Shown in pieces: positions 6,401-64,000 of a DNA stretch of 64,000 nucleotides (position 1 is its first letter; the number at the start of each line of letters is the position of its first letter). The stretch is from Candidatus Omnitrophota bacterium (GTDB lineage: Bacteria; Omnitrophota; Gorgyraeia; Duberdicusellales; 4484-171). The stretch spans positions 66,954 through 130,953 of the forward strand of contig JAAEQW010000256.1 in NCBI GenBank assembly GCA_024231025.1, in the 5' to 3' direction. Both the position numbers and the translations under genes were made by a program. The notes beneath the pieces are model-generated. The model was given only the letters and a program-made list of their open reading frames with translations, made no database searches and was not told where the DNA came from.

Positions 6401-7727
6401 CGCTATGTTTGCCCGGGGCGACATTCAGTCTTTAGGCTTGTTTGGACATGATTACTATAATTGGGCTTATAATGACCAAGCAGCAGAAGATGCTCATGCG
6501 ATCATGGATGGTTCGGCAGACATTGATGTTATGAGAGCTAGATATTTTTCTTTAGATCGATCAAATCAACTGGCAAAGTTATTACTAGCTTTACCTTTGG
6601 ATTTTCTTAATGATATTTTGGGGACACCGATGTCTATGGCTGAGCTTTTTGATAATTTTATAAGAAACAGATCGATGTTTACCGCTGAAATTATAGAAAA
6701 ATTACCACAACCTATCAAGGATGTTTTTGCGTTAATCGAAGAAAAAGAACGAAAAGAACAAACGCAACAGGAAGTTGCTAGAAATTTGGGGGTTCCTGAT
6801 GAGCTAATTAGTAGGGATTTTTCTTTACCAAACGAACAAGGGGATGGGATGGGCGCCTATTGGGCATTCATTGAAATGAGTAACCAAATTGCAAATGTTG
6901 CGTTAACAAGTATATCGAGAGAAACTCCTACCGAAACGTTTGGTGTTTTTCGAGATAGACTAGAATATTTACAAAGAAATCCCACTCAAGCAGGATATTA
7001 TGCAGAAGCAAATAGAATGTCAACGGCGCACGCACAACGGGGAGGGATATTCTATGCGTGGAATCTATTAGAACAAGGTAGATTTCTGGATTTATTTTCT
7101 CAGTATATGGGAAGGCAAATTACCCTTAATGAATTTTTAAATAAAGCATTTGAAGAGATGCTTGATACCTTAACGCATGAATTAATTCATATTCTTGAAG
7201 AGAGCGATGAAGAGACTCACAACGAAGTGTTTTTCGAACGCCAAAAGATCTTAGTTTCCGTTTTAATAGGTGAAAAAGAGAGGGTCACTGACATTCTTGA
7301 AGAGATTATAAGTAGCTCTCAATACGCTGATAATTTAGGGGATGTCTCGGTTAAAAATTTTCTTGAGCACATTGCTGGTCAACAAGGCAGCCATCGTGTT
7401 GAATTCGATAGGGTTGTTATTCCAGAACCAGAAGCAGTTGATTCACTTGAGATGTCGCCAACACCAGAAAATTCTGTTGTTTCATCTGAACTTATAAATT
7501 CGCAAAAAGAAAGCACTGGCGGTATCAATCTTGACCCTAGTGAGCTAGACTTCCAAATGCAAGGTGCAGAGTCAACAATTAAGCCATCTGTCAACTATCA
7601 CCATATTATTCAAGAAATACCGATTAACGGCTTTTCTCCAATTATTTTTCAGATTGCCCCCACTAACCTACCTCTTTTCCTCCAAAATTCGGGACACATC
7701 CCACATAACCGCCGCACTTATCTTTAA
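474..7727 (+). CDS. Giant secreted or membrane-anchored protein (2417 aa). It has two HSP90/sacsin-like GHKL ATPase modules and a C-terminal HEXXH motif. The true start may be ATG 507 (MMKKAKISF..., signal-like).
   Basis: Single 7.25-kb ORF. The N-terminal hydrophobic segment is LVCLGIVFCFLTGLGL. Bergerat-fold motifs are ITNAYDSM...SVSDDGSGMS...GRFGIGFESL (around aa 640-760) and IQNVIDE...IDIQDMIGMN...GKQGQGFFTLLANS (around aa 1700-1790). LTHELIHILEE lies near aa 2240. Confidence 0.75.
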   Translation: MGYSYVNRSRFMMKKAKISFELVCLGIVFCFLTGLGLSGLMKDIALKKVNSVAFQDNLDLPAPGAMVKQTSDFAPAKLKGIKIFPDNPLKFDFVIDCGNTNLERKELEEESAKLIKYFLASLTVPEKELWVNLSPYEANRVIPEKLGQTEMGKDLLAQDYILKQLTASLMYPEDEIGQTFWDRVYAKANELYGTSKIAVNTFHKVWIVPDKAVVYQSGDTAFIIESHLKVMLESDYLALANAESVGAASQPPAEETNDISSEVMREVILPEIEKEINSGENFANLRQIYQSLILAAWFKRNLKENSLAKVYADENKVGGVQIKDKTIKKKIYDRYVEAYKRGVYNYIKKDYDIASKKFIKRKYFSGGFEGKMDDALRVEGKSQDETAVAVRDTQKGSLETVSVTLDPVRNLDRLREKLVEIAQDKRNDLPPDASEDQIMVHIIDSLKARQSREGELIREVTKKDGTIVVEIDDTIKDELLGRAIQKEVIDRPGGVKAVNFKDSNDVWRVVGFSSELTEDQLRDELEEVRLRRDKGMNWIQAFNAVRRKFHGGKGQIDQGRAQEYAVGRRDVLSASVSAAGGKENIVAFGKIVSALRNHIGKPGSTLYEDIKGRILKGGTPIRSGDNIGNQSSVATMGTFIDEHFSLPEEAIREIITNAYDSMRSEPNPESREVQVQINNGYMSVSDDGSGMSLDTILKKFYPPFEGEKSGAVLSQIRDIINDEEADKISRIREFIKSLVLSELSDTERNSIKDVQSRLGGLTSDGGQLIKTINSLITFTGRFGIGFESLLYFVKSEEDFIEIITSTGKEAHRIKFFWVNGELQTGVDVLDPQTTAKGTKVTLQSSRFNKDNARGVVNRYLSFNSNARINVSVDGQAAEFINREVFDPMNFTHVSGDAQVEAFYSKAENTTGRSTVRINVHGVTILTKEIEGYGLPSEVIFNFPAQIGLPISRNKIQVNELFIEKAKDMLQMIAPEPKLMSAFYPLIAILESSAKASERNVLAQAAADAAYSAWEDEFLVYLPNGEEHSKVKHENVVLVDPKLMRVLSLRGFRNSYFGIAELLKLTSGEYPKVGNKNVYIVDFVDETKMVTTSDAILINRKYAPQVDDEKALYNVLLKLNKEKDRFEYNYQEAAVQRQEDADATLDRRIDASDPIVIQALDSLPDERSKEHFLSIVNRSENDAKLVGYIMNPASFVSIYNRLKRFSLHDAFALNWSEFYSKIVWNDLSEDDDTLDFILENERIGKLQEYFLAQNRSEFTMELLNILIGKNFHPNRENISRQVLNDELDRLWELREFLNKKTVNLIMRATLLDADTYQEFRNRLVADRDTGGIKLDDLSQTEWEVLNKVDWNSFDSSSEIPFQLFLDGNLAAVRRIAEISARLNRAFMERRANISLATSMCNMLDEEIGRFISSGKYIDISELEMGYGNVFCLPYYFQFFYGDGWREKLNVYLELEMRGREIWSLEKIMASTIPIEQKMRLLEAVIESVSALESEVDSFLEFPFEFDGELLQEIENPALFIQFISGFPLFDEAFLNRKHLSDQQNESIPFGYQYLLRYEKEILRKIITVFHHVSNLPNDEYVRTQEDLKRYFKKGSVTGRIAPYVQYLLNAQDVKDVEGRELKVTPQRKFALVDLYDTYLENSSEQESHEETAGRNGDFTSVDQRVSRAAQRSSEKRDEERQKLLRNTFRAAAQQSVDDLVLIREAIQNVIDETPAGADAQKVSINVYRKRVALGEELTVIDIQDMIGMNAERLFNKLLMPFSSSKKDSKKFLGKQGQGFFTLLANSEYVMLKTVKDGRVCILKITPEKLNGQVVDFFVKEEQRDAFADESNGTHIQATVRADLPGLEAVRVSVAGQKYAALVDPERLAVEINGEQVNANSGRKLAVEETRYGDVEFYSISGESFMALGGPFVKPIDDDFMALVPPALRKVLLENGFAVNLPFQNIRRIQGGSDIANKEEIYENIEDPVARGTIKLVIAMFARGDIQSLGLFGHDYYNWAYNDQAAEDAHAIMDGSADIDVMRARYFSLDRSNQLAKLLLALPLDFLNDILGTPMSMAELFDNFIRNRSMFTAEIIEKLPQPIKDVFALIEEKERKEQTQQEVARNLGVPDELISRDFSLPNEQGDGMGAYWAFIEMSNQIANVALTSISRETPTETFGVFRDRLEYLQRNPTQAGYYAEANRMSTAHAQRGGIFYAWNLLEQGRFLDLFSQYMGRQITLNEFLNKAFEEMLDTLTHELIHILEESDEETHNEVFFERQKILVSVLIGEKERVTDILEEIISSSQYADNLGDVSVKNFLEHIAGQQGSHRVEFDRVVIPEPEAVDSLEMSPTPENSVVSSELINSQKESTGGINLDPSELDFQMQGAESTIKPSVNYHHIIQEIPINGFSPIIFQIAPTNLPLFLQNSGHIPHNRRTYL
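7686..7703 (+). repeat. REP1 copy inside the 3' end of the giant gene
   Basis: AATTCGGGACACATCCCA; it encodes ...NSGHIPH in the giant ORF tail. Confidence 0.7.
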
Positions 7728-7910: not shown

Positions 7911-7930
7911 TTAATTCGGGACACATCCCA
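7911..7930 (+). repeat. REP1 copy upstream of the RAYT gene
   Basis: TTAATTCGGGACACATCCCA, 40 bp before the RAYT start. Confidence 0.7.
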
Positions 7931-7971
7931 TTTTTCTTGAAAATGACTAATTTTGTGGTATAGTTCTTGCC

Positions 7972-10580: not shown

Positions 10581-12023
10581 ATGGAAAAAGAAAGAAACGA
10601 CTGGATAAAGTCAAGTTATCTGCTTAGGATGTTTAATCTTTCCTTCGCGGTTTTTACAATGCTTCCGATGCTTGTGTTTCTGTATCTTTTTTCTAAATAT
10701 AATGGTAGTGATGCGATTGCGATCAGCAAGAGCCACTTATCTTCGTTGGTTAGCATTATCGCGGTGGCTTCTCTTTTGCTATTTGTGTTGCTGGGAAAAT
10801 TACTAAGAAAAATAACCATTCTTACCTATGGAATGAGAAAGGCTCTGTTCGGCAAGATAGACACTGACGTTATTTCTAAATTAGCAAAAGAAGATGGCGA
10901 AGTAGCTCAGTTGGCGCAAAGTTTTGAAGATATTATGATGCGTCTTGAAGACAACATAAAAGATCTTCAGGAAACCAAAAAAACACTTCACGACGTTCTT
11001 TCAAAAGTAGGCAAAGCGTTAACCTCAATGGAGAACTTTGATCTTTTGATTAATCTTATTTTAGAAACCGCAATTGATGCTCTGGGCTCTGTAAAGGGAG
11101 CTATTTTTTCTTTAGAAGGTGGCAAAGATTTTAAGCTAAAAGCTGCTGTAGGGTTGGATAGTATCTCTCAAAGAGAAATGCTTGAGAACGTAAAACCCTT
11201 AATGGACGAAACCATTCGTGGTCAGGAGAGCATAATTGATTCTGAGGCCGGGTCTTGCGGTCAGCAGTTGTTTCCACGGCCGCTGGTGTCTACGCCATTA
11301 GTTTGCCATCAAAAAACACAAGGGGTGATTATTCTAAGCGGTAAAAAGAAGGAAGGCAACTTCACCGAAGATGAGCTAACCATGTTAGCTAATCTAAGTT
11401 ATCAAGTTGCAATATCTTTTGAGAATGCCGCACTTAGCAAAGATGTTGAAAAAACGTATTTTGAAACAATGGCCGCATTAGCCTTAGCGGTTGAGGCAAA
11501 AGACTCTTATTCGCGAGGGCACTCTGAAAGAGTTGGCGATTATGCCGTAAAGATAGCACAAGAGCTCACAATGAAGGAAAAAGAAATTACAACTTTAAAA
11601 GATGCTTCTCGGCTCCATGATATTGGAAAAATTGGCATTGCTGATAAGATTCTCAATAAGAATGATGCGCTGTCTTCTGAGGAAAAAGATATCATGAGAA
11701 AACATTCTCTAATAGGAGAAAGCATTGTTTATCCGCTTAAGACATTTTCTCATTTGTTAGAGCCAATACGCCATCATCACGAATTTCTAGATGGTACTGG
11801 TTACCCTGACGGGGTATCCGGTGATAAGTTGCCTTTGGTGACTAGGGTTTTAACTGTTGCAGATATCTTTGATGCACTGTCAAGCGATCGCGTATATCGA
11901 AAGGCTTTGGGTATAAATAAAATTGTAGACGAACTTAAAGAAATGGTAGCTCAGGGCAAGCTTGACGGTAAAGTAGTGGACGCGCTTGCTAAAGTAGTGG
12001 GCGATAAGAAAATAAAATTGTAG
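10581..12023 (+). CDS. Membrane-anchored GAF / HD-GYP c-di-GMP phosphodiesterase
   Basis: N-terminal TM segments, a HAMP-like linker, HDIGKIG (HD) and HHHEFLDGTGYPDG (GYP). Confidence 0.85.
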   Translation: MEKERNDWIKSSYLLRMFNLSFAVFTMLPMLVFLYLFSKYNGSDAIAISKSHLSSLVSIIAVASLLLFVLLGKLLRKITILTYGMRKALFGKIDTDVISKLAKEDGEVAQLAQSFEDIMMRLEDNIKDLQETKKTLHDVLSKVGKALTSMENFDLLINLILETAIDALGSVKGAIFSLEGGKDFKLKAAVGLDSISQREMLENVKPLMDETIRGQESIIDSEAGSCGQQLFPRPLVSTPLVCHQKTQGVIILSGKKKEGNFTEDELTMLANLSYQVAISFENAALSKDVEKTYFETMAALALAVEAKDSYSRGHSERVGDYAVKIAQELTMKEKEITTLKDASRLHDIGKIGIADKILNKNDALSSEEKDIMRKHSLIGESIVYPLKTFSHLLEPIRHHHEFLDGTGYPDGVSGDKLPLVTRVLTVADIFDALSSDRVYRKALGINKIVDELKEMVAQGKLDGKVVDALAKVVGDKKIKL

Positions 12024-38671: not shown

Positions 38672-38746
38672 TGATTACGGAGATTGGAGAAAGATTACAA
38701 CGATTAGAAACATTGGTAAATGGTGATTAGGATCAATAAATTGGCT

Positions 38747-38871: not shown

Positions 38872-39014
38872 GCTAACGTGATATTTTCAATTGTACAAGA
38901 ATTATAAAAATATCCGCTGAAAACGTTTACAATTTAGGTGTGTTTTTTTGAATTTCGCCTTGCTTTTGCTTAAGAGTATATGGTATATTGAAATGGTACC
39001 GAGATTAAGAAATG

Positions 39015-39150
39015 GGGGGCGGCGAAAAGGCAATCTTAAACTCGCCCTAGAGTTTAAGCGCGCAAAGCCACGGGTCCTATAAGGGCAAAAGATCAGGACG
39101 GCCGGGCTACCGAAGGTCTCTTAGAGGCGAGGTGGGCCGGTTTTTGTATT
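39015..39150 (+). promoter_or_regulatory. c-di-GMP-I (GEMM) riboswitch-like leader, copy 1, upstream of the pilin operon
   Basis: GGCAA..P1 stem-loop..CGCGCAAAGCCACGGGTCC..GGCCGGGCTACCGAA matches the Vc2 core (GGGCAAACC-P1-GACGCAAAGCC-P2-GCGGGGUUACCGA). A promoter-like TTGCTT..TATATT lies upstream. Confidence 0.65.
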
Positions 39151-39163
39151 ATAGAGGTAATTA

Positions 39164-39339
39164 TGTTAATAAGGCGCAAAAAATTGTGTGCACAAACAGT
39201 TCTTGAGTATATTCTCTTGACGGCGGCGGCAGTAATTGCCATTGCGGGGTTCGGAAAGTTTTTTAATATAATTGTAGGAGATTCCGGTGCATTAACCCGG
39301 CATTTTAATGTGATGAAGCAAAGTATAACCGGACAATAA
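39164..39339 (+). CDS. Small pilin-like protein with a class-III-like signal (58 aa; not in the ORF track)
   Basis: RBS AGAGGT; N-terminus MLIRRKKLCAQTVLEYILLTAAAVIAIAG. Confidence 0.55.
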
Positions 39340-39342
39340 AGT

Positions 39343-39498
39343 ATGAAGCGCAGAACAAAAACTCAAAGCATCGTTGAATACGTAATGCTGTTTATGATTG
39401 TGTCAGCAGCAATTATGATGACTTATAAATACCTGAACCGCTCGATGAACGCTCGCTTAAAACAGGTTCAGGAAGAATTAGAATACGAAGCATACTAA
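39343..39498 (+). CDS. Small pilin-like protein (51 aa; not in the ORF track)
   Basis: N-terminus MKRRTKTQSIVEYVMLFMIVSAAIMM. Confidence 0.5.
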   Translation: MKRRTKTQSIVEYVMLFMIVSAAIMMTYKYLNRSMNARLKQVQEELEYEAY

Positions 39499-39694
39499 TG
39501 ATTTTTTAACAGGGAGGTATTAAAATTCCAAATAACAAATCCCAAATCACAAACAAATCACAATGATTAAAATTCAAAACAGGAAAAGACACGTTTTTGG
39601 TCATTTGATATTGGAATTTGGTAATTGTTTGTGATTTGTTTTTTGGAGCTTGTATTTTTTGACAATATGATTTCTTAATGGGGGAGGTGAAGGG

Positions 39695-39931
39695 ATGTTG
39701 ATACGCAAAAAAGCGCAAGGAATTTTGGAGTATACCCTGCTTTTAGGGGCAATCATCGCGGTGGTCGTTACGGTAATGATGAAAAAGGATAGCGGTGTAG
39801 CCGCTAGGGTTAAAAAGACTTATGAAAAAGCAGGGACGGCGATTGATAAAACAAATAAAGACTTAAACGTTGGCGTTTTTGCACCACCGGCGAGTACTGT
39901 TCCCGGAGAAGTAACCGTGCGGCGGCGCTGA
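39695..39931 (+). CDS. Pilin-like protein with a class-III-like signal
   Basis: RBS GGAGGTGAAGGG; N-terminus MLIRKKAQGILEYTLLLGAIIAVVV. Confidence 0.75.
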   Translation: MLIRKKAQGILEYTLLLGAIIAVVVTVMMKKDSGVAARVKKTYEKAGTAIDKTNKDLNVGVFAPPASTVPGEVTVRRR

Positions 39932-39975
39932 TGATGATTAGTATATGGTAATTACGTTTTTAAGGAGGTGAAGCA

Positions 39976-40167
39976 ATGTTGATACGCAAAAAAGCACAGG
40001 GAATTTTGGAGTACACCCTGCTTTTAGGGGCAATCATCGCGGTGGTTGTTACGGTGATGATGAAAGAAGGGGGCGTAGCAAGTAAAGTTTCAGATACTTA
40101 CGAGAAAGCAGCGACGGCAATTGAGACGACAACCGATGATTTAACGTCGGGTGTTTTTGGGCCTTGA
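39976..40167 (+). CDS. Pilin-like protein, a paralogue identical to the previous one over its N-terminal 30 aa
   Basis: N-terminus MLIRKKAQGILEYTLLLGAIIAVVV. Confidence 0.75.
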   Translation: MLIRKKAQGILEYTLLLGAIIAVVVTVMMKEGGVASKVSDTYEKAATAIETTTDDLTSGVFGP

Positions 40168-40206
40168 TCGATATATAGTAACCATGTTTTTAAGGAGGTG
40201 AAAGAA

Positions 40207-40617
40207 ATGTTATTACGAAAAAAAGCACAATCAACCGCGGAATATGCAATTACCATTGGTTTAGTAGTTGCGGTTGCCGCAGGCATCATGCAAGTTGCCC
40301 TAAAGAATGGAATGCGTCAAAAGAGCAAGGAAGCTAATGATATTTTGCGCCGAGCAGGTACCGCTGCGATGGGGAGTATGGACGTTGACACGACTATTTT
40401 TGGTGGTGCGTCAACGGGTCTTAACCCTGATGCACAAGGGGCGTTTAACGTTTACAACGAAAGTGCGCGCTCAACAGTGGTTGACCAAGAAAGCTATCTT
40501 GATAAAACTATTCTTGAGAAGGGCGGAGCCGAAAAGAAACTTCAACACCGTGAAACGGTAACTACGTCGATGGATGTCGATAATTTTGAAAATGTAAATA
40601 AAGATACTACGCCATAG
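40207..40617 (+). CDS. Pilin-like protein with a longer C-terminal domain
   Basis: N-terminus MLLRKKAQSTAEYAITIGLVVAVAAG. ATG 40207 has the same RBS spacing as its paralogues; the ORF track begins at GTG 40198. Confidence 0.7.
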   Translation: MLLRKKAQSTAEYAITIGLVVAVAAGIMQVALKNGMRQKSKEANDILRRAGTAAMGSMDVDTTIFGGASTGLNPDAQGAFNVYNESARSTVVDQESYLDKTILEKGGAEKKLQHRETVTTSMDVDNFENVNKDTTP

Positions 40618-54496: not shown

Positions 54497-54527
54497 TTGA
54501 CATTTTACTCATAAAAATGTTATATTT
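54497..54527 (+). promoter_or_regulatory. Sigma-70-like promoter (TTGACA, 17-bp spacer, TTATAT) driving riboswitch copy 2
   Basis: TTGACA at 54497-54502 and TTATAT at 54520-54525. Confidence 0.5.
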
Positions 54528-54532
54528 GTATG

Positions 54533-54615
54533 GTAGCGAAGGGCAAACCTCGAGTAATCGAGTGGCGCAAAGCCACGGGCCCCGAATGTTTTGGGGCAGC
54601 CGGGTTGTGGGTATC
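54533..54615 (+). promoter_or_regulatory. c-di-GMP-I (GEMM) riboswitch-like leader, copy 2, upstream of the 2102-aa gene
   Basis: AGGGCAAACC-TCGAGTAATCGAG (P1 with a GUAA loop) - GGCGCAAAGCC - ACGGGCCCC..GGGGCAGCCGGGTT. Confidence 0.65.
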
Positions 54616-54652: not shown

Positions 54653-57600
54653 ATGAAACAAAAAAGTAATAAAATGGGGAGTGGGGATAGGGGGAGGTTT
54701 TTAAACTTTTCTCTTAGCTCGTTTAAAGGTAAGAAAATAGTGAGTGCGATAGTCGCACTCATTTTTTTATTTAACGTCTGTACCCCTGCGTATGCTTGGC
54801 GTGACGGTAATCATAGCCATACAACTAGCGCTGCAGCTTTTGGTGGCGGAGCGCTCGGCGGACTCGTAACCGGTGTTTTTATTTTGATCGGTAATGGTGG
54901 CCTAACCAGTTGGGGATCGGTAGTTGCCGGTGCTGCGTCTGATATAACCGGAGCGATCATGTACTACGAAAGTTATGACACCTACGATGAGACGATGACC
55001 ATTGGCGGGGAAGAGCTTGATTGGAGTCTTGGCAAAGTTGACATAACGATTACTAAAGGTCAGTTTTGGAGTATGACTGCCGGAATAATTGCTGGCTGTA
55101 TAGTTGGTGTTGTCGGCGGTGTTGCTTCAGGAGTGAAAACCGCAGCCGCTGAAGCAGCTAAAGAAGGCGTGAAAGAAATATCGAGTGAGGCGATCAAAGA
55201 AGTCACAAAAACCGCAACTGACATTGCAGTAGAGACAATGAAGAATGTAGTTGTCGGATCGATGATTGGTGCCGTGGCCGGTGCCGCCGGAGGCGCGATA
55301 GTTGGGGCAATTAGCGATGGTAAGGAAGGCGCCCTTAAAGGCTTGGGAAAAGGTGCTGTTCTTGGTGCCGCGGCGGGGGCAGGCGGTGCGTTACTAACTG
55401 GTGTTTTGAGAGGTATTGAAAAGGTGCTTGCTTCAACGATGGGCGATTCTCTTGCCGGTACGATTGCTGAGAACGTTATTAATCATACTTTGCGCAACGC
55501 TTTAATTAAGCTTCCGGTTGACTTTGCTTGTGCTTTTGGAGCGCTAGTAGTTTCTCGTACCGTTGAAGAAGTGCTAGTTCAAAAACACGACATGGATCGA
55601 ACCCTTGCCGGGATGATTGGTGGCGTTGCCGGAATGGGGGCGCGTTTTCTTACCCAGCCGGTATTAATGCAAACGTGGACCCAGAACAATTATTACATGA
55701 GCAACCGAGGCATTGTGCTTAGCGCAGGTGAGAAAAAGCGACTGGACATGGTTGCGAATTTTAAAAAGACCCTCAAGAAATCCAAGGATAAAATCGAAGT
55801 TGGTCAAATTGACGCCAAAACCGGAGAAGTAACCCAAAGTAAGACCATTAGCGTCTCTCGTCTTGCTGATGCAAAATATATAGGTAGTGGAGTGTTTCAA
55901 TTGGAAAATGGAAGTCAAGTTGACATTAATTCTAACGGCATGAGGGGGTTATCTCCTGAAATAATGAAAGCGGTGAAGGGTTATGCCAACATAGTTGCGA
56001 GGGTGGATCCTTCAATGAGAATAACCGGCGACGTTGCGCGCACCTTTGGCGGAGGCGCGGTGCAGGATTCGTTTTTTGCTCCGATTCATTCGGTGGTGAG
56101 CGTTGGGCCGCGACCGATTATTTCAACAGCAACACAAGTTGCGATATTATATGCTTTGGATTATAAGACGTTTTACGGCCGGGGTGATTCAGAACGCGGC
56201 AAAAAGAAAAATTATCGCAATGCGCTTAAGATGGCGCTTGCGCGCAGCGCAGGTTCGCTTGCTGGTGAGCTGTCGACAGGTTGGTTAACGCAAGCTTATA
56301 ATCCTTGGAGTTCAAGGCCGCAAGATATGGCGGGTTTTAAAGGTTGGGCGCAACATACCGGCAGGGCGGTTGCGGTGGAAAGCGGCGGACTGCTAGCTGA
56401 CGTTGCTTTTGCTCGGATGACTTACGCTTGGAATTTAAATACTGCCTATGGCCTTCAAGGCCTGGTGCATTTGGGAATGAGTAGTCTTGTTGGTGGAACA
56501 TTGGATACCTTATTTAGAGAAGATCGAATGAAAGCCGAGAAAACAGTTTTCGTTGAGGTTAAAGATGAGCCCGAATACGTTGATGAAAAAAAACTTGTTA
56601 AGAAAGAGCCCGAAACGCTCAGCGAAGAAGAACACCGAGAAAGATATAGTGCCGCAAGAGGTTGGGAGCCCGATGAAAACGCGACTAAGCCATCAAAGGG
56701 TATCTACGTTTATACAAACACTAAAACCGATGAAACAAAAACTTATAAAAAGCAGCACAGCGTGGTGGATGTTCCTAAAGGCTATGAATCGGCCTATTCG
56801 AAGGCAAGCGTTGGCGCGCCACGAGTGGATATTTTCTTTATTTGTGTAGGAATGGATTTTGCTAATAACTTCAAAGAAGCATCAATTAACGCGGCACTGA
56901 TGCCTTATCCGTATCGTTCAACCGGCACTGGAATGGGGGCAATGGCCGCAAATTTTGAAAATCAAGATCGGTTTACTCGTCGCATAGCAATGCATATGCG
57001 CGGGGTTGGCCCAGTTCAAGCAAGGGCAATCGAGGCGGGCCAGGCTCTAAGCGGCCAGGCACGGGGACGTTTTGCTAATAGTTTCGGTTATTCAATTGCT
57101 AATACATGGCTTCCGTATCGGTACCAATCTTACGCGGCATTTATGCCGGACGTTGACGCGCACTTAGATGAAAACGTTTCTACGCCGGGTAGAGAATCTG
57201 AAAAGCTCTATAAGGATCGTAAGGAAACGAAAGAACAGCGCCAAAAAGTAAGACAAGAAACTCAGGAAGTAGAGAAAAAAATAGCAACAATTGAACTCTC
57301 CAACTTAGATAAAAAAAGTGATGATACTTTAGTTGCGTTACAAAAACGTTTAATTGAGCTAAAGGTACAAGATAAAGCATTGGGGAATAAACTTGCCCAA
57401 AATAAAAAAGATATTCAAAATCTCCGTACCAAAACGGTCAATGCGTACGGTGATTTGTCGCCAATATATTTTAATGGCGGGATCGTGAATTATTCAGTTG
57501 ACCGGCGTATCTCTGATTATGCGGTGGTAAGAGAATCAATTCAGTTTACCGGCGAAAGATCCGCTGAAGAAAAAGAAAACGCAATGATTCACAACGAAGA

Positions 57601-60600
57601 TCCTTCGCAATATAGATCAATTGAGGTAGAGGCAAAAGCAACGCTAGAGAGGGCGGGTGATGATGAGGAAATTGAAATATCTTCTTTTCAAGGAACGTAT
57701 AATCCTTCATTGGCCGGCCGACCGTTGGCAGTTGAGCACTACAGCACACAATTATCACATGGCGTTAGTGTTAATAACTTAGCCGGTGCTCTTGAAGGCG
57801 CTGAGCATCCGTTGATTGTGGGTGATGGCCTTACCATAACTAAGCCCGATCAACTTGATGAGGCTAAAAACAGGCTTTATGATATTATGGCAGACGATCC
57901 GGACGCGCCGATATATTATAAGGAGTTAAAAGCAGAGAAAGACTTAAACGATCAGGTAGTCGAGAAGCGGGCACAAGAGCAAGTTAAAGGTGCGAAAGCT
58001 TCAACTGAGAAAGTTAAGCCGATAATCCTGGTTACCGACAAGAAAAAGCGAGCCATCGCCGAAGAGATGACGGGTATTGTTGAGCGGCTTAATGGCGCGG
58101 TAAAGGGTGACGAAAACGCGAAACGTAATTTCGGTTCGGGTTTAATTGGCGTAATGGCCCTAAGAAGACAGGGTAATTCTTATTATCGGGCAACATGGGT
58201 TTTGGGTGAGGGCGATGAAAAGAAAGCAAAAGTTGCCAGAGTAATCGATGATTTAGGGGTTAGCCGTGGCGGTGGTATAAAATTGCAACATTCAGATAAG
58301 CCGTCTTTAACTGCCCGCACCACACGCGATATTTACGGCAGAAGTATTGAAACAAAAGAATACGGTTGGCATTATGATGTGAAAGAAGAAGAGATTGGGG
58401 TAAGTGATCCTCAAAGTAAAAGAAAGCCGGGTACAACAACACCTGAGAAGAAAAAAGTATCGGGTAACGGCGGGTATCGCCTTGTATCCCGTGATTTAGA
58501 AGGTGATGATAAGGTGTTAAAAGTCACTAAGCACGTTTATAAGGATTCGAAAGAAGCAAGAGAGGCTGCGATTGAGCTCAGTAAAAAGATGCCTAATTGG
58601 CATATTCAAATATACGAGAACGACGAAATTGCCGAAATCGAAGACGACAAGTTTCTTTTGGTTGAGGATTCCCCGGAACATTCTTTGATTGCGGCCATTT
58701 CGCCAGAAGCCGCGGCGGCAGGCCTAATCCCTTCTAAAATTCCTGATGATTATAAAATAAGAGCAGCTTATCCAAGAACCGAGACCACCGGAACCTGGAA
58801 AAACGTTGAAGTAGCAACCACCGAATACTATTATGGGCCGATGGGCCAGGCGATGTCAATAAGAAGCGAGGATCCAATAAAGTCACAACGCCGCAAAAAA
58901 GATTATAGTGCGGCGAATATAGTTGACGTTAGGCAATTAACTTTGCGTAAGCACGAGGATGAGACCGGGGCAATTAGAAAAGTAGAGCTCATCGAGAATG
59001 TTGATGGTGAGGAAAAAGTATTAAGTGAATTTAGAGGGAAAGAGGGAGAAAATCCTTTTGATGAAGCAGTAGCGTATGCGGCTACGCTCCAAAGCCCTGA
59101 TCCTACGATGGAGACAGTAGATTATGATTCGACAGGCGATCAACATTATATTGTGATGCGTGATCCAAAGACACAAAAGATAACTGGATTTGCCACGAAA
59201 GATTCTTATGCTAAGCATAAGGACGCATACGCTAAAGCCAATGAGCTTATTGATGGGCTTCTCCAAGGAGGTGGCGATGAAGCTTTACCTAAGGATACGA
59301 TTTTTGAAATATACATGGCTCATGAAATAGGTAAAACCAAAGACGGTCAACTGGTTATTTTAGATGATGAAGCAAGCGATGCCGCTTTGGCAGAAGCGCC
59401 AGTTGGAAAATATGCTTTGAAACCAAGCAGCCTTACCGGCAGAAAAGCGCCTAGTCAGGGGCCGGATGATCACAGCCCCGACGCGGTTGATTTTGGCAAG
59501 GCAACAGTTCAAGCGGCATCTGTTGCTAAAGGTGATGACCCGAACGTTACCTATGCGATAAGCATTTACGACACAAAAAGTGATCTTGAGTTTGTTAAGT
59601 CGTTAGGTGATGGCGGCTGGACGCGTTCGCCGTATGTTGGCGGTCCTAGCGGGCGATTAATTGCCCAAGACATACACCATGGTCCGCAGCTCTTATCAAA
59701 AAACGTACCGTATAATCCTAACATGCCCAGCAACCTTTTAAAAGTTGTGCGGATACATCTTGAAAATAGATTTCTCCAAGAAGCCGGCTTAAAAGAATTG
59801 GCAGTTGATGACATAGACGTTGACACAGAAGAAATTGTTGATGAGATGTATGATCGATTTGTTAAGAAAGCGCCGAAGTTTAAAGATCGGGTACTTGATG
59901 TGCGAGGCGCCAAAGGCAATAAGGAAGAGGCTTATAGCAAAGTAATGAGCAATTCGAATTACAATTTAGGCAAAATAGCTAACGAAACGTATAATGAAGT
60001 AGTTAATGAGCGCTTTAAAAGGGCGGGCCTAAACGATCAGGCTTGGAATACAATGATGCAAAGGCCAATAACAAGAATGGAGAGTTTTCAGTTTTTTGAA
60101 AATAAAAATATTGCCGGCAAAACATATTCGCTTCCAACCTGGGGCGCTAAGGCGGGGTATAATGCCGCTCGTCGTCCCAATAGGGATGTGGTTTATGATG
60201 CCCTAAGGCCGAATACAATGTTAAGCGCAACCGAAGATTATGTGCTACAATATGACGCAGGCGATCGGGTGATTGACATAACTGTTGTAGCCGGTGAAAC
60301 CATTGAAGATGCCTTAGCTAGAGAGGATATTTTTGTGTCACGCAAAGAGTATACCGCAAGCAAAGATGGGCGCAAATTTGCCGTTAATAAAGATAAAACT
60401 TTCAATGAGGCTGAGTATGAGGAAACCGGATTTTTATCGAAGCCTAAAGAGCGTAACATTGTGCTTGGCGGCGACAAAGCGATAAGGGTTGGACCGTCTC
60501 AGAGCCCACAAGAAGCCTTGAAAGAGCACGAGATAATCGGCACAACTTTTATTAGTGAAGAGGATTTTGTAAATAGAGTTGTTGCGCCTAATGAGGAGAT

Positions 60601-60961
60601 GTTTACTGTGATGGTTGATGGCGAACTGCCAAGCAGTGCTGATGGTGGAATGCGCTTTGTGAAGAGTAGTTTCTATGATTATCGTCCCGAACAAGTAAGA
60701 GCTGCTCATGCTCAACGCATCGAAGCGGCTAAAAAGCGTGGCGATAGCGCGGCGCTCAATTATTGGAAGAGCTCGGCGGTGATAGATGTTGATGGAGTAG
60801 CAATGGTGGTTGAACCCGGTGAAGCCGGGGTTAACCCAATGTATCGCTATGAAATTCAAACCTTATTCGACGATTACATGGATACAATGATTGGCATAAC
60901 CCGTAGTGGTGCAGGAACTGGACCAACGATACAGATGCGGCCGAATGGGATCGGAAAATAG
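54653..60961 (+). CDS. Giant membrane-anchored protein (2102 aa). The N-terminus carries Gly/Ala-rich glycine-zipper-like hydrophobic segments; a coiled-coil region lies mid-protein.
   Basis: Single 6.3-kb ORF. Segments such as GGGALGGLVTGVFILIGNGG and IGAVAGAAGGAIVGAI; no recognisable enzymatic motif. Confidence 0.75.
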   Translation: MKQKSNKMGSGDRGRFLNFSLSSFKGKKIVSAIVALIFLFNVCTPAYAWRDGNHSHTTSAAAFGGGALGGLVTGVFILIGNGGLTSWGSVVAGAASDITGAIMYYESYDTYDETMTIGGEELDWSLGKVDITITKGQFWSMTAGIIAGCIVGVVGGVASGVKTAAAEAAKEGVKEISSEAIKEVTKTATDIAVETMKNVVVGSMIGAVAGAAGGAIVGAISDGKEGALKGLGKGAVLGAAAGAGGALLTGVLRGIEKVLASTMGDSLAGTIAENVINHTLRNALIKLPVDFACAFGALVVSRTVEEVLVQKHDMDRTLAGMIGGVAGMGARFLTQPVLMQTWTQNNYYMSNRGIVLSAGEKKRLDMVANFKKTLKKSKDKIEVGQIDAKTGEVTQSKTISVSRLADAKYIGSGVFQLENGSQVDINSNGMRGLSPEIMKAVKGYANIVARVDPSMRITGDVARTFGGGAVQDSFFAPIHSVVSVGPRPIISTATQVAILYALDYKTFYGRGDSERGKKKNYRNALKMALARSAGSLAGELSTGWLTQAYNPWSSRPQDMAGFKGWAQHTGRAVAVESGGLLADVAFARMTYAWNLNTAYGLQGLVHLGMSSLVGGTLDTLFREDRMKAEKTVFVEVKDEPEYVDEKKLVKKEPETLSEEEHRERYSAARGWEPDENATKPSKGIYVYTNTKTDETKTYKKQHSVVDVPKGYESAYSKASVGAPRVDIFFICVGMDFANNFKEASINAALMPYPYRSTGTGMGAMAANFENQDRFTRRIAMHMRGVGPVQARAIEAGQALSGQARGRFANSFGYSIANTWLPYRYQSYAAFMPDVDAHLDENVSTPGRESEKLYKDRKETKEQRQKVRQETQEVEKKIATIELSNLDKKSDDTLVALQKRLIELKVQDKALGNKLAQNKKDIQNLRTKTVNAYGDLSPIYFNGGIVNYSVDRRISDYAVVRESIQFTGERSAEEKENAMIHNEDPSQYRSIEVEAKATLERAGDDEEIEISSFQGTYNPSLAGRPLAVEHYSTQLSHGVSVNNLAGALEGAEHPLIVGDGLTITKPDQLDEAKNRLYDIMADDPDAPIYYKELKAEKDLNDQVVEKRAQEQVKGAKASTEKVKPIILVTDKKKRAIAEEMTGIVERLNGAVKGDENAKRNFGSGLIGVMALRRQGNSYYRATWVLGEGDEKKAKVARVIDDLGVSRGGGIKLQHSDKPSLTARTTRDIYGRSIETKEYGWHYDVKEEEIGVSDPQSKRKPGTTTPEKKKVSGNGGYRLVSRDLEGDDKVLKVTKHVYKDSKEAREAAIELSKKMPNWHIQIYENDEIAEIEDDKFLLVEDSPEHSLIAAISPEAAAAGLIPSKIPDDYKIRAAYPRTETTGTWKNVEVATTEYYYGPMGQAMSIRSEDPIKSQRRKKDYSAANIVDVRQLTLRKHEDETGAIRKVELIENVDGEEKVLSEFRGKEGENPFDEAVAYAATLQSPDPTMETVDYDSTGDQHYIVMRDPKTQKITGFATKDSYAKHKDAYAKANELIDGLLQGGGDEALPKDTIFEIYMAHEIGKTKDGQLVILDDEASDAALAEAPVGKYALKPSSLTGRKAPSQGPDDHSPDAVDFGKATVQAASVAKGDDPNVTYAISIYDTKSDLEFVKSLGDGGWTRSPYVGGPSGRLIAQDIHHGPQLLSKNVPYNPNMPSNLLKVVRIHLENRFLQEAGLKELAVDDIDVDTEEIVDEMYDRFVKKAPKFKDRVLDVRGAKGNKEEAYSKVMSNSNYNLGKIANETYNEVVNERFKRAGLNDQAWNTMMQRPITRMESFQFFENKNIAGKTYSLPTWGAKAGYNAARRPNRDVVYDALRPNTMLSATEDYVLQYDAGDRVIDITVVAGETIEDALAREDIFVSRKEYTASKDGRKFAVNKDKTFNEAEYEETGFLSKPKERNIVLGGDKAIRVGPSQSPQEALKEHEIIGTTFISEEDFVNRVVAPNEEMFTVMVDGELPSSADGGMRFVKSSFYDYRPEQVRAAHAQRIEAAKKRGDSAALNYWKSSAVIDVDGVAMVVEPGEAGVNPMYRYEIQTLFDDYMDTMIGITRSGAGTGPTIQMRPNGIGK

Positions 60962-61089
60962 ATGCATAGTTCAAATAAAGAGAGCATAAGTGATTGATTG
61001 TCAAATAGTTATGAGACGAAATGTCCTTTTTTATAAAAAGATGTAAATTTACTTGTTTTTTACTAATATAAGTGTTATAAATGGGTGAA

Positions 61090-61249
61090 GTACGAAAAGG
61101 CAAACCCCGAGTGATCGGGGGGCGCAAAGCCACGGGTCCTGAAGTTAGGTGTATTCTCGCAGATTGCCTAAGGGTGATCTGTCTGTGCACATTTAGTTTG
61201 ACGATAGCCGGGTTACCGAATATTATTGATATTTAGTAACCCGGTTTTC
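61090..61249 (+). promoter_or_regulatory. c-di-GMP-I (GEMM) riboswitch-like element, copy 3, ending in an intrinsic terminator
   Basis: AGGCAAACC-CCGAGTGATCGGGG (P1 with a GUGA GNRA loop) - GGCGCAAAGCC - ACGGGTCC..AGCCGGGTTACCGAA. Terminator CCGGGTTAC..GTAACCCGG plus TTTT at 61208-61249. Confidence 0.7.
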
Positions 61250-61428
61250 ATTTTTCCGCCTTAAGCGGGAAAATGACCCTGAGCACCTCGACCTTGCTCG
61301 GCATAAACTCCGTCGAAGGGTCTTGAGACTTGGTTTCTAAGCGATTGAAACTAAGATTAAAGCGGTTGTGGTAATAGTGTTTTTTGATTGTAGATAGCGG
61401 AAAGTGGAAAAAAGACGTTAAAATCGGC

Positions 61429-61460
61429 GGAAAATGCTTTTGAAAGCATTTTCATTTTTT
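61429..61460 (+). terminator. Intrinsic terminator hairpin GAAAATGCTTT-TGA-AAGCATTTTC plus ATTTTTT
   Basis: 11-bp stem followed by a T-run, between the duplicated riboswitch units. Confidence 0.5.
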
Positions 61461-61524
61461 GCCAAAAAAACGTCTTTTTGGCTTGCTTTCACTTATCTAT
61501 AAATGTTATATATGTATTGCAGAC

Positions 61525-61678
61525 AGCGGTACGAAAAGGCAAACCTCGAGTGATCGGGGGGCGCAAAACCACGGGTCCCAAAATTACGGTTAAAGTAAGA
61601 AATAGCTTTTGGCTGGATTTTGCATTAGGGATAGCCGGGTTACCGAATATTATTGATATTTAGTAACCCGGTTTTTTA
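61525..61678 (+). promoter_or_regulatory. c-di-GMP-I (GEMM) riboswitch-like element, copy 4, with a terminator-type expression platform
   Basis: Same core as copy 3 (GCAAACCTCGAGTGATCGGGGGGCGCAAAACCACGGGTCC). Terminator 61635-61678. Confidence 0.7.
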
Positions 61679-61802
61679 ATGAGACTTGCATTCTGGTAGT
61701 TCAGAATGCGTAGCCGAATTAATCCCGTTTTACGGGATAAGTGAGACTTGGTTTCTAAGCGATTGAAATTGAGATTACAACGATTCGACGATTGTGACTG
61801 CT

Positions 61803-64000
61803 ATGAGAGAAAAACTTAACAATAGAGCGAACTGTGGGGGAAAGGGGGAGGTTTTGAGCCTCTCAATTCCGTTAAAAGAAGAGAACCTCAAAGTTTCCGT
61901 ATCCTTCAAACAGGACACTCCCAACCCCGATGAACCGTACGTAAGCGCTTGGCAAAAGTTTAAAAAGTCACCGCTTTTTAAAGTTGTTGCTTTCACGGTG
62001 CTGTTTATTTTTGTTTTTGAAGACATAACTCGTGCCGCTGGTTTAAGCGCGCCAATTATTCCTGTTCAATCATCTCCAATGATGATGGCTAGCGCTCCTT
62101 TGCCGTTGCGCTTGCTGCCTTTGGTTCATGCTTCTTTTGAAGACGGGGACAGTTCGGGCTGGTCGGCAGTCAACGATTACCAAGATTTTCAAACAACTCC
62201 CTACAGCTACGATGTTTCAATGAGCGGATACCAAATGCAATCTAATAATTTGAGTGCTCAGGACCTGCAACATTCCGAGAATATTCCGCTGGGAGTTACT
62301 TACACCACCCATGGTGCTAATGGTCAGGTTGAATGGATGGGTCAAAGCGTTGCTGGAAAACAGATAATTAACACCTACACCGCTGCTGATGGTCTTGAAA
62401 GGACCACCGGCATAAACATATATTATGACGACCCGGCTAGTATCCAGCAGGATGGTGGCGTGGTTACTTCGGCTCGTTTAGGCGAAGTTTTAATGACACC
62501 TGAGGGCGGCGAAGTCAAAATTGGTTTTAGCGGAAACAGTTATTGGAAGTCTGAAGACGGTGCGCAAGGCTCTACCGCGTTTAAGGTGTCTAAAGAGGAC
62601 GGAGCAGCAACGTTATGGATCGCAGAAAATGGTGGGCTCAGATTTCATGGTAAGCCAACGCAGGACTCTTTTTACCAAATGGATCACAGCGCGATTCGTG
62701 GTGGTGATTTTTCTAGTGCGCCGACTACTTCGTGGAACGCGATCATGGATACGGTTCGCAATCCTGATCCGATAAGAAAACAAGGTGGCGGTTACACCCC
62801 CCATAGCGGTGCTGATCACATTTCAACATTTTCTGTTGTACCGGTTGCCGGTCAAGATGGTAGCGGATTGCAACACATGATTCCGTTTCAAACGAAAGAG
62901 ATGGATAAGTCGGTAATGGCAATTGATATTACCGATGCCGGAGTAACCGTTGGTGCCGGTAGCACGATTGGTTGGGGTTATGGCCCTGGAAAGTCGGTAA
63001 ACGTGGTAGATAATTTTGGCTTTAGGACCAAAGGCGTGGGGATAAAAAACGGGATTGTTGACGGCTCTGTTAGTTTTCATCCGCAAGCAATGCCGGGGCA
63101 GTCTTTGGTTATGCAGACACATAATTTAACCGCGATTAACACCGGTAGAAGTGACCTTTCCTGGGTTGCACGTACTTATGAGACAAATGCTTCCGGCGGT
63201 TTTAGTGATACAACAGCGTACGTTGAATTGGAGGATCACTTTAGCATTGATTCGAACATTGACGGAGCGCTTTATGTGAAAGACTTAAATAAGGCAGCAA
63301 GGGGAGGACAGTCGAATTACGGTGATATTATAAGTAAGAGATTTGATACAAACCAAGTTGGTCATTTGAAAATCACCGAATTTAAAGCAGATACTCAAGG
63401 GTATATGCGGGCAATCGTTGGTCGAGAAGGCCAATACATTGGTGCTCAGGGGATAGATGTAATGCAAAACCGAGTCGGACTCACCGGAGCTGTTAACCGT
63501 GAAGCCGAATACAATAAAACAACGGATATTCTGGATGCGCCAGCGGTGGCTACTTTTGGGAATCTAACCAACAATACCGGTTCATTTGCGGCTAATGACC
63601 CTGACGAATATATAACGTTTACTCCTTATGCTAAATCGCTTGCCCTTGAAGACGGAGCGAAAATTACCTTGCTGGATCCAATTGGTGATGACGCCGATAA
63701 AATTCATTTTATGAACCTAACGGCAAAAGATAACCATGGTTTTATTGACGGTGATCTTATAACTATTGATTACCGTGCCGATAGCGGGATTAGATTAGAA
63801 AATAGTAACACGAGGAGAGAGCTGGTTAATTTTAGAGACATTAATCACGTGGTAACAGTTATCAACCGAGATGTTACGGAGTTGCAGGGGTTTTCTTCAA
63901 TTAAGGTGGGGGCCGAATTTACGCTTTTGAATAACTTAGTTGACGGCGAAGTTGAATATGGAGAAGTTATTAACGCGCCGGTGCACGAAATTGGCAAAAC
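61803..64000 (+). CDS. Large secreted or membrane-anchored protein, 5' partial; it continues beyond the window and is absent from the ORF track
   Basis: ATG 61803 opens a frame with no stop through 64000 (more than 730 codons). There is a signal-anchor VVAFTVLFIFVF, and it lies downstream of riboswitch copy 4. Confidence 0.6.
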   Translation, partial: MREKLNNRANCGGKGEVLSLSIPLKEENLKVSVSFKQDTPNPDEPYVSAWQKFKKSPLFKVVAFTVLFIFVFEDITRAAGLSAPIIPVQSSPMMMASAPLPLRLLPLVHASFEDGDSSGWSAVNDYQDFQTTPYSYDVSMSGYQMQSNNLSAQDLQHSENIPLGVTYTTHGANGQVEWMGQSVAGKQIINTYTAADGLERTTGINIYYDDPASIQQDGGVVTSARLGEVLMTPEGGEVKIGFSGNSYWKSEDGAQGSTAFKVSKEDGAATLWIAENGGLRFHGKPTQDSFYQMDHSAIRGGDFSSAPTTSWNAIMDTVRNPDPIRKQGGGYTPHSGADHISTFSVVPVAGQDGSGLQHMIPFQTKEMDKSVMAIDITDAGVTVGAGSTIGWGYGPGKSVNVVDNFGFRTKGVGIKNGIVDGSVSFHPQAMPGQSLVMQTHNLTAINTGRSDLSWVARTYETNASGGFSDTTAYVELEDHFSIDSNIDGALYVKDLNKAARGGQSNYGDIISKRFDTNQVGHLKITEFKADTQGYMRAIVGREGQYIGAQGIDVMQNRVGLTGAVNREAEYNKTTDILDAPAVATFGNLTNNTGSFAANDPDEYITFTPYAKSLALEDGAKITLLDPIGDDADKIHFMNLTAKDNHGFIDGDLITIDYRADSGIRLENSNTRRELVNFRDINHVVTVINRDVTELQGFSSIKVGAEFTLLNNLVDGEVEYGEVINAPVHEIGK

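Follow-up and report, generated by a model that had tools for sequence, protein, structure and literature searches.

Class I riboswitches for cyclic di-GMP (c-di-GMP-I) are the most numerous type of tandem riboswitch, with 347 doublets and 12 triplets (PMC9481103), and in the Bc3-5 triple tandem of Bacillus thuringiensis it has been shown experimentally that they turn transcription on (PMC4759541). Riboswitches are also known as parts of noncoding RNAs (ncRNAs): merRNA of Bdellovibrio bacteriovorus is an ncRNA with a c-di-GMP riboswitch and no conserved downstream open reading frame (ORF) (PMC3627812), and EutX/Rli55 of Enterococcus and Listeria is a decoy RNA controlled by an adenosylcobalamin (AdoCbl) riboswitch (PMC5821096). 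Here we describe a locus of a Candidatus Omnitrophota bacterium in which two c-di-GMP-I riboswitch units (units 1 and 2) stand one behind the other upstream of the gene for a giant protein. The locus lies in a 64,000-nucleotide (nt) stretch of contig JAAEQW010000256.1, which was analyzed as a whole and is called the window below.

The locus shares with Bc3-5 its class I aptamers and terminators that use the binding-site C, P1, and part of the 3′ strand of the second hairpin, giving an ON design (PMC4759541). As in Bc3-5 and the catalogued doublets, highly similar units precede a cell-surface gene (PMC4759541, PMC9481103). Those arrays, however, are taken as acting in series within one 5′ untranslated region (5′-UTR), whereas here a structured RNA, an unregulated terminator, and a promoter are predicted between the units. 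The tandem of an adenine and a T-box(Tyr) element in Clostridium botulinum has promoters upstream of and between its elements, and its downstream element can act alone, but the elements sense different ligands and the review mentions no terminator or repeated leader between them (PMC9481103). Like merRNA, unit 1 would yield an RNA of a few hundred nt (445 nt for merRNA and a predicted ∼370 nt here), with a c-di-GMP-I aptamer at its start and no ORF after it. merRNA was defined by its massive expression in RNA-seq, whereas unit 1 is a prediction from sequence; unlike merRNA, unit 1 is immediately followed by a paralogous riboswitch-gene unit, with which it has a leader hairpin, D3, in common. 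The likeness to EutX/Rli55 is that a riboswitch terminator sets a short or a long form of the ncRNA and that the long form carries a structure also found in the leaders of regulated mRNAs. EutX differs in its ligand and in its opposite logic, as AdoCbl shortens the RNA; its protein EutV and dual-hairpin site are known, whereas D3 has no known partner and is unlike the ANTAR site.

Results

Promoters and terminators of the two units

The two riboswitch units are probably two separately promoted transcription units, because a middle terminator (Tmid) and a full promoter motif lie between the copies and unit 1 has no ORF (Table 1). Two complete riboswitches of the same class were found in one orientation with no ORF between them, as in a tandem; the predicted terminator and promoter motif that intervene, however, do not fit a single transcript. 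A preliminary description of the window had seen both a second terminator between the copies and a promoter-like TATATAT box; the former is the Tmid hairpin, and the latter (61506-61512) falls within a complete extended −10 promoter motif. It had also suggested that the first copy could be a stand-alone RNA, which is the reading that we favor in view of its own promoter motif, Tmid, and the absence of any ORF of at least 20 amino acids (aa) on the forward strand of positions 61250 to 61430. Unit 1 is predicted to comprise an aptamer with its own promoter, a noncoding stretch, and its own terminator, as expected of a riboswitch-controlled ncRNA. A 17-codon ATG ORF found by eye (61276-61329) was rejected as a small-protein gene, since a hairpin encloses its weak GGGA and nothing corresponds to it in unit 2.

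The predicted transcription starts are ∼61088 for unit 1, at the 5′ edge of aptamer 1, and ∼61520 for unit 2. The promoter motif, TTGnnn-N14/15-TGnTATAnn, was derived from the window's own four sites and then checked on unrelated metagenome contigs. On both strands of the window it occurs four times (38960, 54497, 61053, and 61483; 1.5 expected), with one site just ahead of each of the four c-di-GMP aptamers found there, and in the independent contigs it precedes 8 of 19 aptamers, with a total of 36 matches in 461 kb. The promoter regions of units 1 and 2 are alike (z 3.6 versus shuffles), and that of unit 2 is homologous to the promoter of a further riboswitch unit at 54532 (z 4.0). The 54532 promoter is intergenic and most likely works, because the ORFs listed upstream of it are on the opposite strand. 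No significant structure was found between the stop codon (60961) of the preceding gene, which encodes a 2102-aa protein, and the unit 1 promoter (z 0.23), and transcription of that gene could read through into unit 1.

A textbook tight c-di-GMP-I tandem was observed on metagenome contig L027 (1454-1652, minus strand), where one extended −10 promoter is followed by two aptamer-terminator units and then an ORF. The aptamers of L027 are 116 nt apart and the promoter motif stands only at the first, whereas the units in the window are 438 nt apart.

TABLE 1 Positions of the two riboswitch units, their leader elements, and related features
Feature	Position	Strand	Details
Unit 1 promoter	61053-61081	+	−35 TTGTTT 61053-61058; 17-nt spacer; extended −10 TGtTATAAA 61073-61081
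c-di-GMP-I aptamer 1	61090-61221	+	Rfam 59.8 bits, E 1.4e-11, listed under RF03167
Terminator 1 (expression platform)	61206-61255	+	Hairpin 61206-61246, then UUUUCAUUUUU; −24.5 kcal/mol, z −7.4
Unit 1 spacer	61250-61323	+	Hairpins 61250-61274 and ∼61279-61300; unlike unit 2 spacer (z −0.4)
D3 copy 1	61324-61367	+	Hairpin 61329-61355: CUUGGUUUC / 9-nt loop UAAGCGAUU / GAAACUAAG; −9.3 kcal/mol
Middle terminator (Tmid), unregulated	61409-61482	+	Terminator scan; inner hairpin 61430-61453, then AUUUUUUG to 61460 (−10.7 to −14.2 kcal/mol, z −3.5), nested in outer stem 61409-61419/61469-61479; composite fold −25 kcal/mol
Unit 2 promoter	61483-61512	+	−35 TTGCTT 61483-61488; 18-nt spacer; extended −10 TGtTATATA 61504-61512
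c-di-GMP-I aptamer 2	61528-61647/8	+	59.6 bits RF01051 (E 3.8e-09); 58.9 bits RF03167
Terminator 2	61633-61679	+	Hairpin 61633-61673, then UUUUUUAAU; −21.9 kcal/mol, z −6.7
Unit 2 post-terminator leader	61676-61741	+	GA element 61676-61722; second hairpin AUCCCGU...ACGGGAU 61722-61738
D3 copy 2	61742-61785	+	Hairpin 61747-61773, 3′ strand GAAAUUGAG; −6.0 kcal/mol
Regulated gene, 5′ part	61803-64000, past window end	+	Translation from ATG 61803
GA element, contig L022	2624-2685	+
GA element, contig L022	∼740-800	−
GA element, contig L026	9344-9367
GA element, contig L035	10000-10023
Third c-di-GMP-I riboswitch	Aptamer 39019-39114		42.5 bits; promoter 38960-38989; terminator ∼39101-39145
Fourth c-di-GMP-I riboswitch	54532-54612		57.7 bits; promoter 54497-54526; 40 nt before ORF 54653-60961

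Aptamers and switch design

The aptamer proposed for each copy was confirmed with Rfam covariance models and cmscan alignments, which gave c-di-GMP-I (GEMM-I; RF01051, clan CL00126) matches of ∼60 bits each. Aptamer 2 passes the family threshold of RF01051 (gathering score 35), and aptamer 1 exceeds the gathering score of RF03167 (59), with a weaker match in the same clan that is also above threshold and is masked by clan competition. Both aptamers consist of P1a with a GUGA cap (a GNRA tetraloop) and a long P1b, closed by a short P1; folding each sequence alone gives this canonical two-hairpin shape, and the cmscan structure lines concur. The alignments place the same nucleotides at three positions in both, namely the G before P1a in AAAAG-GC (G20), the A after CGC in CGC-A-AA (A47), and the C of the ACC after P1b in GGGUUA-C-CGAA (C92). 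In Vc2 numbering these are the canonical nucleotides that contact the ligand. Because G20, A47, and C92 are shared, both aptamers should sense one and the same ligand, c-di-GMP, and the two-input gate that the preliminary description offered as an alternative is unlikely.

Only two substitutions separate the aptamer cores; in P1a a C-G pair is replaced by U-G, and a G-U pair at the P1b base is replaced by A-U, so that both keep the pairing. The distal hairpin inserts of P1b (∼55 nt in aptamer 1 and ∼43 nt in aptamer 2), on the other hand, are unrelated in sequence. Insertions of 40 to 110 nt at the tip of P1b were observed throughout this aptamer group, bringing the aptamers to 120 to 190 nt versus ∼87 nt in the Rfam model; they include, besides the inserts in the window, those at L032 8005-8193 and L022 2411-2594.

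Two other class assignments were rejected. RF03167, the "GGC" variant under which aptamer 1 is listed, has the consensus CGCGAA (G47), which is the single visible difference in this region from the RF01051 consensus, CGCAAA, whereas both copies have CGCAAA (A47). They score nearly equally under RF03167 and RF01051, and the label is a clan-competition effect. A47 is also present in those metagenome aptamers ranked under RF03167 whose sequence was read (L006, L022, L026/L035, and L036). RF03167 is often reported for aptamers with the canonical A47 (61090-61221 in the window; L006, L013, L025, L034, L036, and others), and the label by itself should not be taken as a sign of a variant ligand pocket. 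Specificity for cyclic AMP-GMP (c-AMP-GMP; GEMM-Ib) was likewise rejected; position 20, which selects between c-di-GMP (G) and c-AMP-GMP (A) (PMC9481103), is G and not A in all four aptamers of the window.

A folding check bore out the intrinsic terminator assigned to each copy as a hairpin followed by a U-tract (Table 1). A simple terminator scan missed both riboswitch terminators owing to an internal C/A mismatch in the stem. The 5′ arm of the terminator, AGCCGGGUUAC-C-GAAUAU, is made up of the 3′ strand of P1b, the pocket nucleotide C92, and P1, and the two folds are therefore mutually exclusive, as the preliminary description had argued; when aptamer and terminator are folded together, P1b gives way to the terminator hairpin in the minimum-energy structure. 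Each unit appears to have the standard design of a transcriptional ON riboswitch. A 37-mer of the terminator occurs exactly twice in the window, against 0 occurrences expected by chance. The aptamer/terminator junction, AGCCGGGTTACCGAA ... GTAACCCGG, is present in 38 metagenome contigs, and the design is therefore common; none of these 38 contigs carries D3, the spacers, or the middle region.

Repeat architecture and leader elements

The stretches 61090-61370 and 61525-61800 had been described as duplicated, within a simple tandem duplication of ∼420 bp. Three repeat blocks uphold the duplication, but it does not extend throughout, as the spacers, the inserts, and the 3′ end have diverged to the level of shuffled sequence (z <1). 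Block 1, the 5′ half of the aptamer, is 58 nt long with 91% identity (61090/61529, start-to-start spacing 439 nt); block 2, which runs from the aptamer 3′ strand through the terminator hairpin and TTTT, is identical at 46 of 46 nt (61203/61630, 427 nt); block 3 is D3, 44 nt at 89% (61324/61742, 418 nt), and corresponds to the conserved downstream leader noted earlier. The diverged stretches are the P1b distal insert (61148-61202 versus 61587-61629), the spacer between terminator and D3, and everything 3′ of D3. A MAFFT alignment suggested residual homology of the Tmid region to the beginning of the ORF, which was rejected as not significant (z 0.5). Rather than a simple duplication, the repeat is a mosaic in which only four functional blocks, namely promoter, aptamer core, terminator, and D3, are conserved, at 89 to 100% identity, amid unrelated sequence. 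This mosaic conservation, together with the pairing-compatible substitutions in the stems, would fit selection on both units.

D3 forms a 9-bp hairpin with a 9-nt loop, of which the 5′ strand and the loop are identical between the copies. In the 3′ strand the copies differ twice, C to U and A to G; G-U and U-G pairs thereby take the place of G-C and U-A, and pairing is preserved. The window contains the 26-mer core of D3 at exactly two sites, where chance would give 0, and the core was absent from the genome and metagenome contigs scanned. The retention of D3 in unit 1, where no ORF follows, beside diverged spacers argues for constraint or homogenization, two copies being too few as proof. Neither D3 nor the leader or the spacers matched an Rfam family, even at E values up to 5, and neither of the window's other two riboswitch leaders gave a significant match to D3. 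Within the window, the complement of D3 was not found, and antisense targets for the tail of unit 1 or the D3 loop did not exceed chance.

The GA element in the post-terminator leader of unit 2 consists of an outer stem, UUAAU/AUUAA, then GA facing GA, and an inner hairpin whose length varies widely. It is also found directly 3′ of the terminator in L022, L026, and L035, and its outer stem covaries on the minus strand of L022 (UAGU/ACUA). A descriptor scan yielded 5 matches beside 42 terminators versus ∼0.5 expected, and the element matches no Rfam family. The 9-mer UGAGACUUG is common to the GA element and D3. A further short match, AGATTACAACGATTAGA at 38691-38707, agrees at 16 of 17 bases with a stretch of the unit 2 leader immediately 3′ to the D3 hairpin (61771-61787; z 4.7 to 6.2 versus shuffles); lying ∼250 nt upstream of the promoter of the riboswitch at 39019, it may be a remnant of another leader copy.

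Regulated genes and their relatives

The large ORF that the preliminary description placed downstream of unit 2 is indeed missing from the ORF lists, because it runs off the end of the window. Its translation is 100% identical to residues 1 to 732 of a partial 4668-aa protein (MCP4652951.1, GY858_06155) encoded on a 142,758-bp contig of a Candidatus Omnitrophota metagenome-assembled genome. This giant protein is at least 4668 aa long; near its N terminus is a hydrophobic segment (about residues 59 to 73), and no Pfam domain was found in it. It has no relative in the GTDB species genomes or in a search of 5.8 billion proteins; a HMMER scan of 1.84 billion representatives returned only itself and one relative at 31% identity, whose contig lacks the upstream intergenic region. 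The upstream 2102-aa protein matches only itself, and no homology was found between the two large ORFs of the window. Very similar aptamers occur in L022, L026/L035, and L032, where the N termini of the downstream proteins resemble by eye those in the window and each contig has a single riboswitch. Because these contigs carry single riboswitches, the comparison suggests that the duplication of the unit is lineage specific; within the source genome, the promoter-aptamer cassettes are clearly paralogous.

The other two riboswitches of the window also stand before genes of interest. The one at 39019 is likewise built as an ON switch, with a hairpin formed by GGCCGGGCUACC and GGUGGGCCGG (−25.8 kcal/mol) ahead of UUUUU, and lies directly upstream of several small genes that resemble Flp pilin genes by eye (39164-40300; one was tested and had no Pfam match). 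The surrounding Tad locus comprises RcpC (32361), a secretin (33335), a CpaE/F fusion (34915), a TadE/G-like gene (44841), and TadB/C (47848/48687). The one at 54532 precedes the gene for the 2102-aa membrane protein (GY858_06150), which is without a Pfam domain; no terminator hairpin was seen behind it by eye, and it may act on translation. On contig L010, a riboswitch at 1492-1609 is followed by an ORF from 1745 whose product resembles, by eye, the N-terminal part of the 2102-aa protein (ASDITGxxMYY ... ITKGxFxSMxAGIxAG); if this resemblance holds, the pairing of riboswitch and gene would be conserved beyond the source genome.

A G-rich motif, GGGG[GA][AT]A[AG]GGGGGAG(G)TTTT, was observed three times in 294 kb (61836-61858 and 54683-54705 in the window and ∼7915-7937 on the minus strand of L032), each copy 24 to 33 nt past the first ATG downstream of a c-di-GMP-I riboswitch. 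Its reading frame varies (GGKGEV versus GDRGRF), and the L032 copy lies within an upstream ORF of 21 codons that stops at the start codon of the main ORF; the motif therefore appears to be conserved as RNA. In the window the motif can pair with CCUCUC just downstream.

Two further genes of the window may bear on signaling. The protein encoded at 10581-12023, with GAF and HD_5/HD domains, may be an HD-GYP-type c-di-GMP phosphodiesterase and a possible part of the same circuit. The 2417-aa ORF at 474-7727 has two HATPase_c-type domains and fits the "signal-transduction" class of very long Omnitrophota proteins (bioRxiv 10.64898/2026.06.07.730766); no riboswitch was found upstream of it within the window.

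Discussion

The arrangement suggests that RNA polymerase would start a few bases before the aptamer in each unit. At low c-di-GMP, the 3′ strand of the aptamer, AGCCGGGUUACCGAAUAU, would pair with the downstream arm GUAACCCGG into a long hairpin with a U-tract, and transcription would stop after ∼160 nt. With c-di-GMP bound, the strand would be held in P1b, P1, and the pocket (C92), no terminator would form, and transcription would go on. In unit 2 this would switch on the gene for the membrane-anchored giant protein. Read-through in unit 1 would instead add ∼170 nt of structured noncoding RNA with a copy of D3 and end at Tmid, the product being a c-di-GMP-dependent ncRNA of ∼370 nt, as opposed to ∼160 nt when terminated. 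Any transcripts that leak through Tmid would face two c-di-GMP checkpoints, a presumably minor component with a steeper response.

Could the first promoter instead drive a single long 5′-UTR that includes both aptamers, with the two terminators acting in series to steepen induction of the giant gene, as in Bc3-5? The complete riboswitches of one class in one orientation without an intervening ORF, and the prevalence of c-di-GMP-I among tandems (PMC9481103), speak for this arrangement; the A/U-rich Tmid could leak, and the adenine/T-box leaders with promoters upstream and between indicate that both modes can coexist (PMC9481103). We nevertheless consider it unlikely, in view of the unregulated terminator and full promoter between the units, of the structured RNA of ∼170 nt that follows terminator 1 and contains a leader hairpin of its own, and of a period of 438 nt versus 116 nt in L027, which has no internal promoter. 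It is very unlikely, in turn, that unit 1 is a functionless, decaying by-product of a segmental duplication of promoter, riboswitch, and leader, with only unit 2 of any consequence. Such an origin would agree with the absence of an ORF behind unit 1, with the lack of relatives that share D3 or the tandem, with the single riboswitches of related contigs that have similar aptamers and protein N termini, and with the paralogous promoter-aptamer cassettes of this genome. Neutral decay, however, should blur all parts equally, whereas the promoter elements, the aptamer core, the terminator (46/46), and the D3 core (27/27, the 9-nt loop included) are intact and the substitutions in the stems are compatible with pairing. 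Least probable of all, and without specific support, is a role of unit 1 as a sponge or store, in which a strongly expressed aptamer RNA would buffer free c-di-GMP in the manner proposed for merRNA. The orphan aptamer of unit 1, having both a promoter and a terminator to itself, would suit this role, and there is a precedent in a predatory bacterium (PMC3627812), Omnitrophota themselves having been proposed to be predators or parasites (PMC10066038); but nothing points to high expression, the short form would have its binding strand locked in the terminator hairpin, so that only the read-through RNA would hold ligand, and the conserved D3 hairpin would be left unexplained.

Several points weigh against two separately promoted units with selection on both. 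The promoter motif is self-defined, a circularity that the check on metagenome contigs lessens and does not remove, and the −10 hexamers TATAAA and TATATA lack the usual final T, so that a generic sigma-70 scan called neither. With only three G-C pairs, Tmid may leak, in which case the serial arrangement would be partly true as well. The near-identity of the blocks could stem from gene conversion or recent duplication and not from selection on unit 1, and no syntenic relative of the locus was found in the databases searched.

Two separately promoted units remain the reading that we prefer, and the orphan first unit appears to be the unusual feature of the locus. One function that might be imagined for it, and which we regard as speculative and quite unlikely, is that of a c-di-GMP-gated decoy RNA, which would show its D3 only at high c-di-GMP and titrate a factor acting on the D3 of the mRNA; candidates for such a partner would be a repressor protein, an RNase, or a small RNA. 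If this were true, the decoy and riboswitch 2 would form a feed-forward loop that sharpens induction of the giant surface protein, similar to EutX but driven by a second messenger.

As the mechanism of the riboswitches is textbook and the c-di-GMP-I tandem is the commonest class, the core finding adds only a new example. The locus also illustrates that two riboswitches in a row need not be a tandem gate: an internal terminator and promoter would make the upstream copy an orphan ligand-controlled ncRNA, a class with very few examples (merRNA and EutX). Giant ORFs that are poorly conserved are a known trait of Omnitrophota, as are Tad/type IV pili, and both have a proposed role in attachment to host cells (PMC10066038; bioRxiv 10.64898/2026.06.07.730766), and these two genome papers make no mention of control by c-di-GMP or riboswitches. 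In the window, four c-di-GMP-I aptamers within 64 kb precede the Flp pilin-like genes of a Tad locus and the genes for two very large membrane proteins. If the proposed control is true, it would provide a concrete and testable regulatory signal for when Omnitrophota cells deploy their giant proteins.

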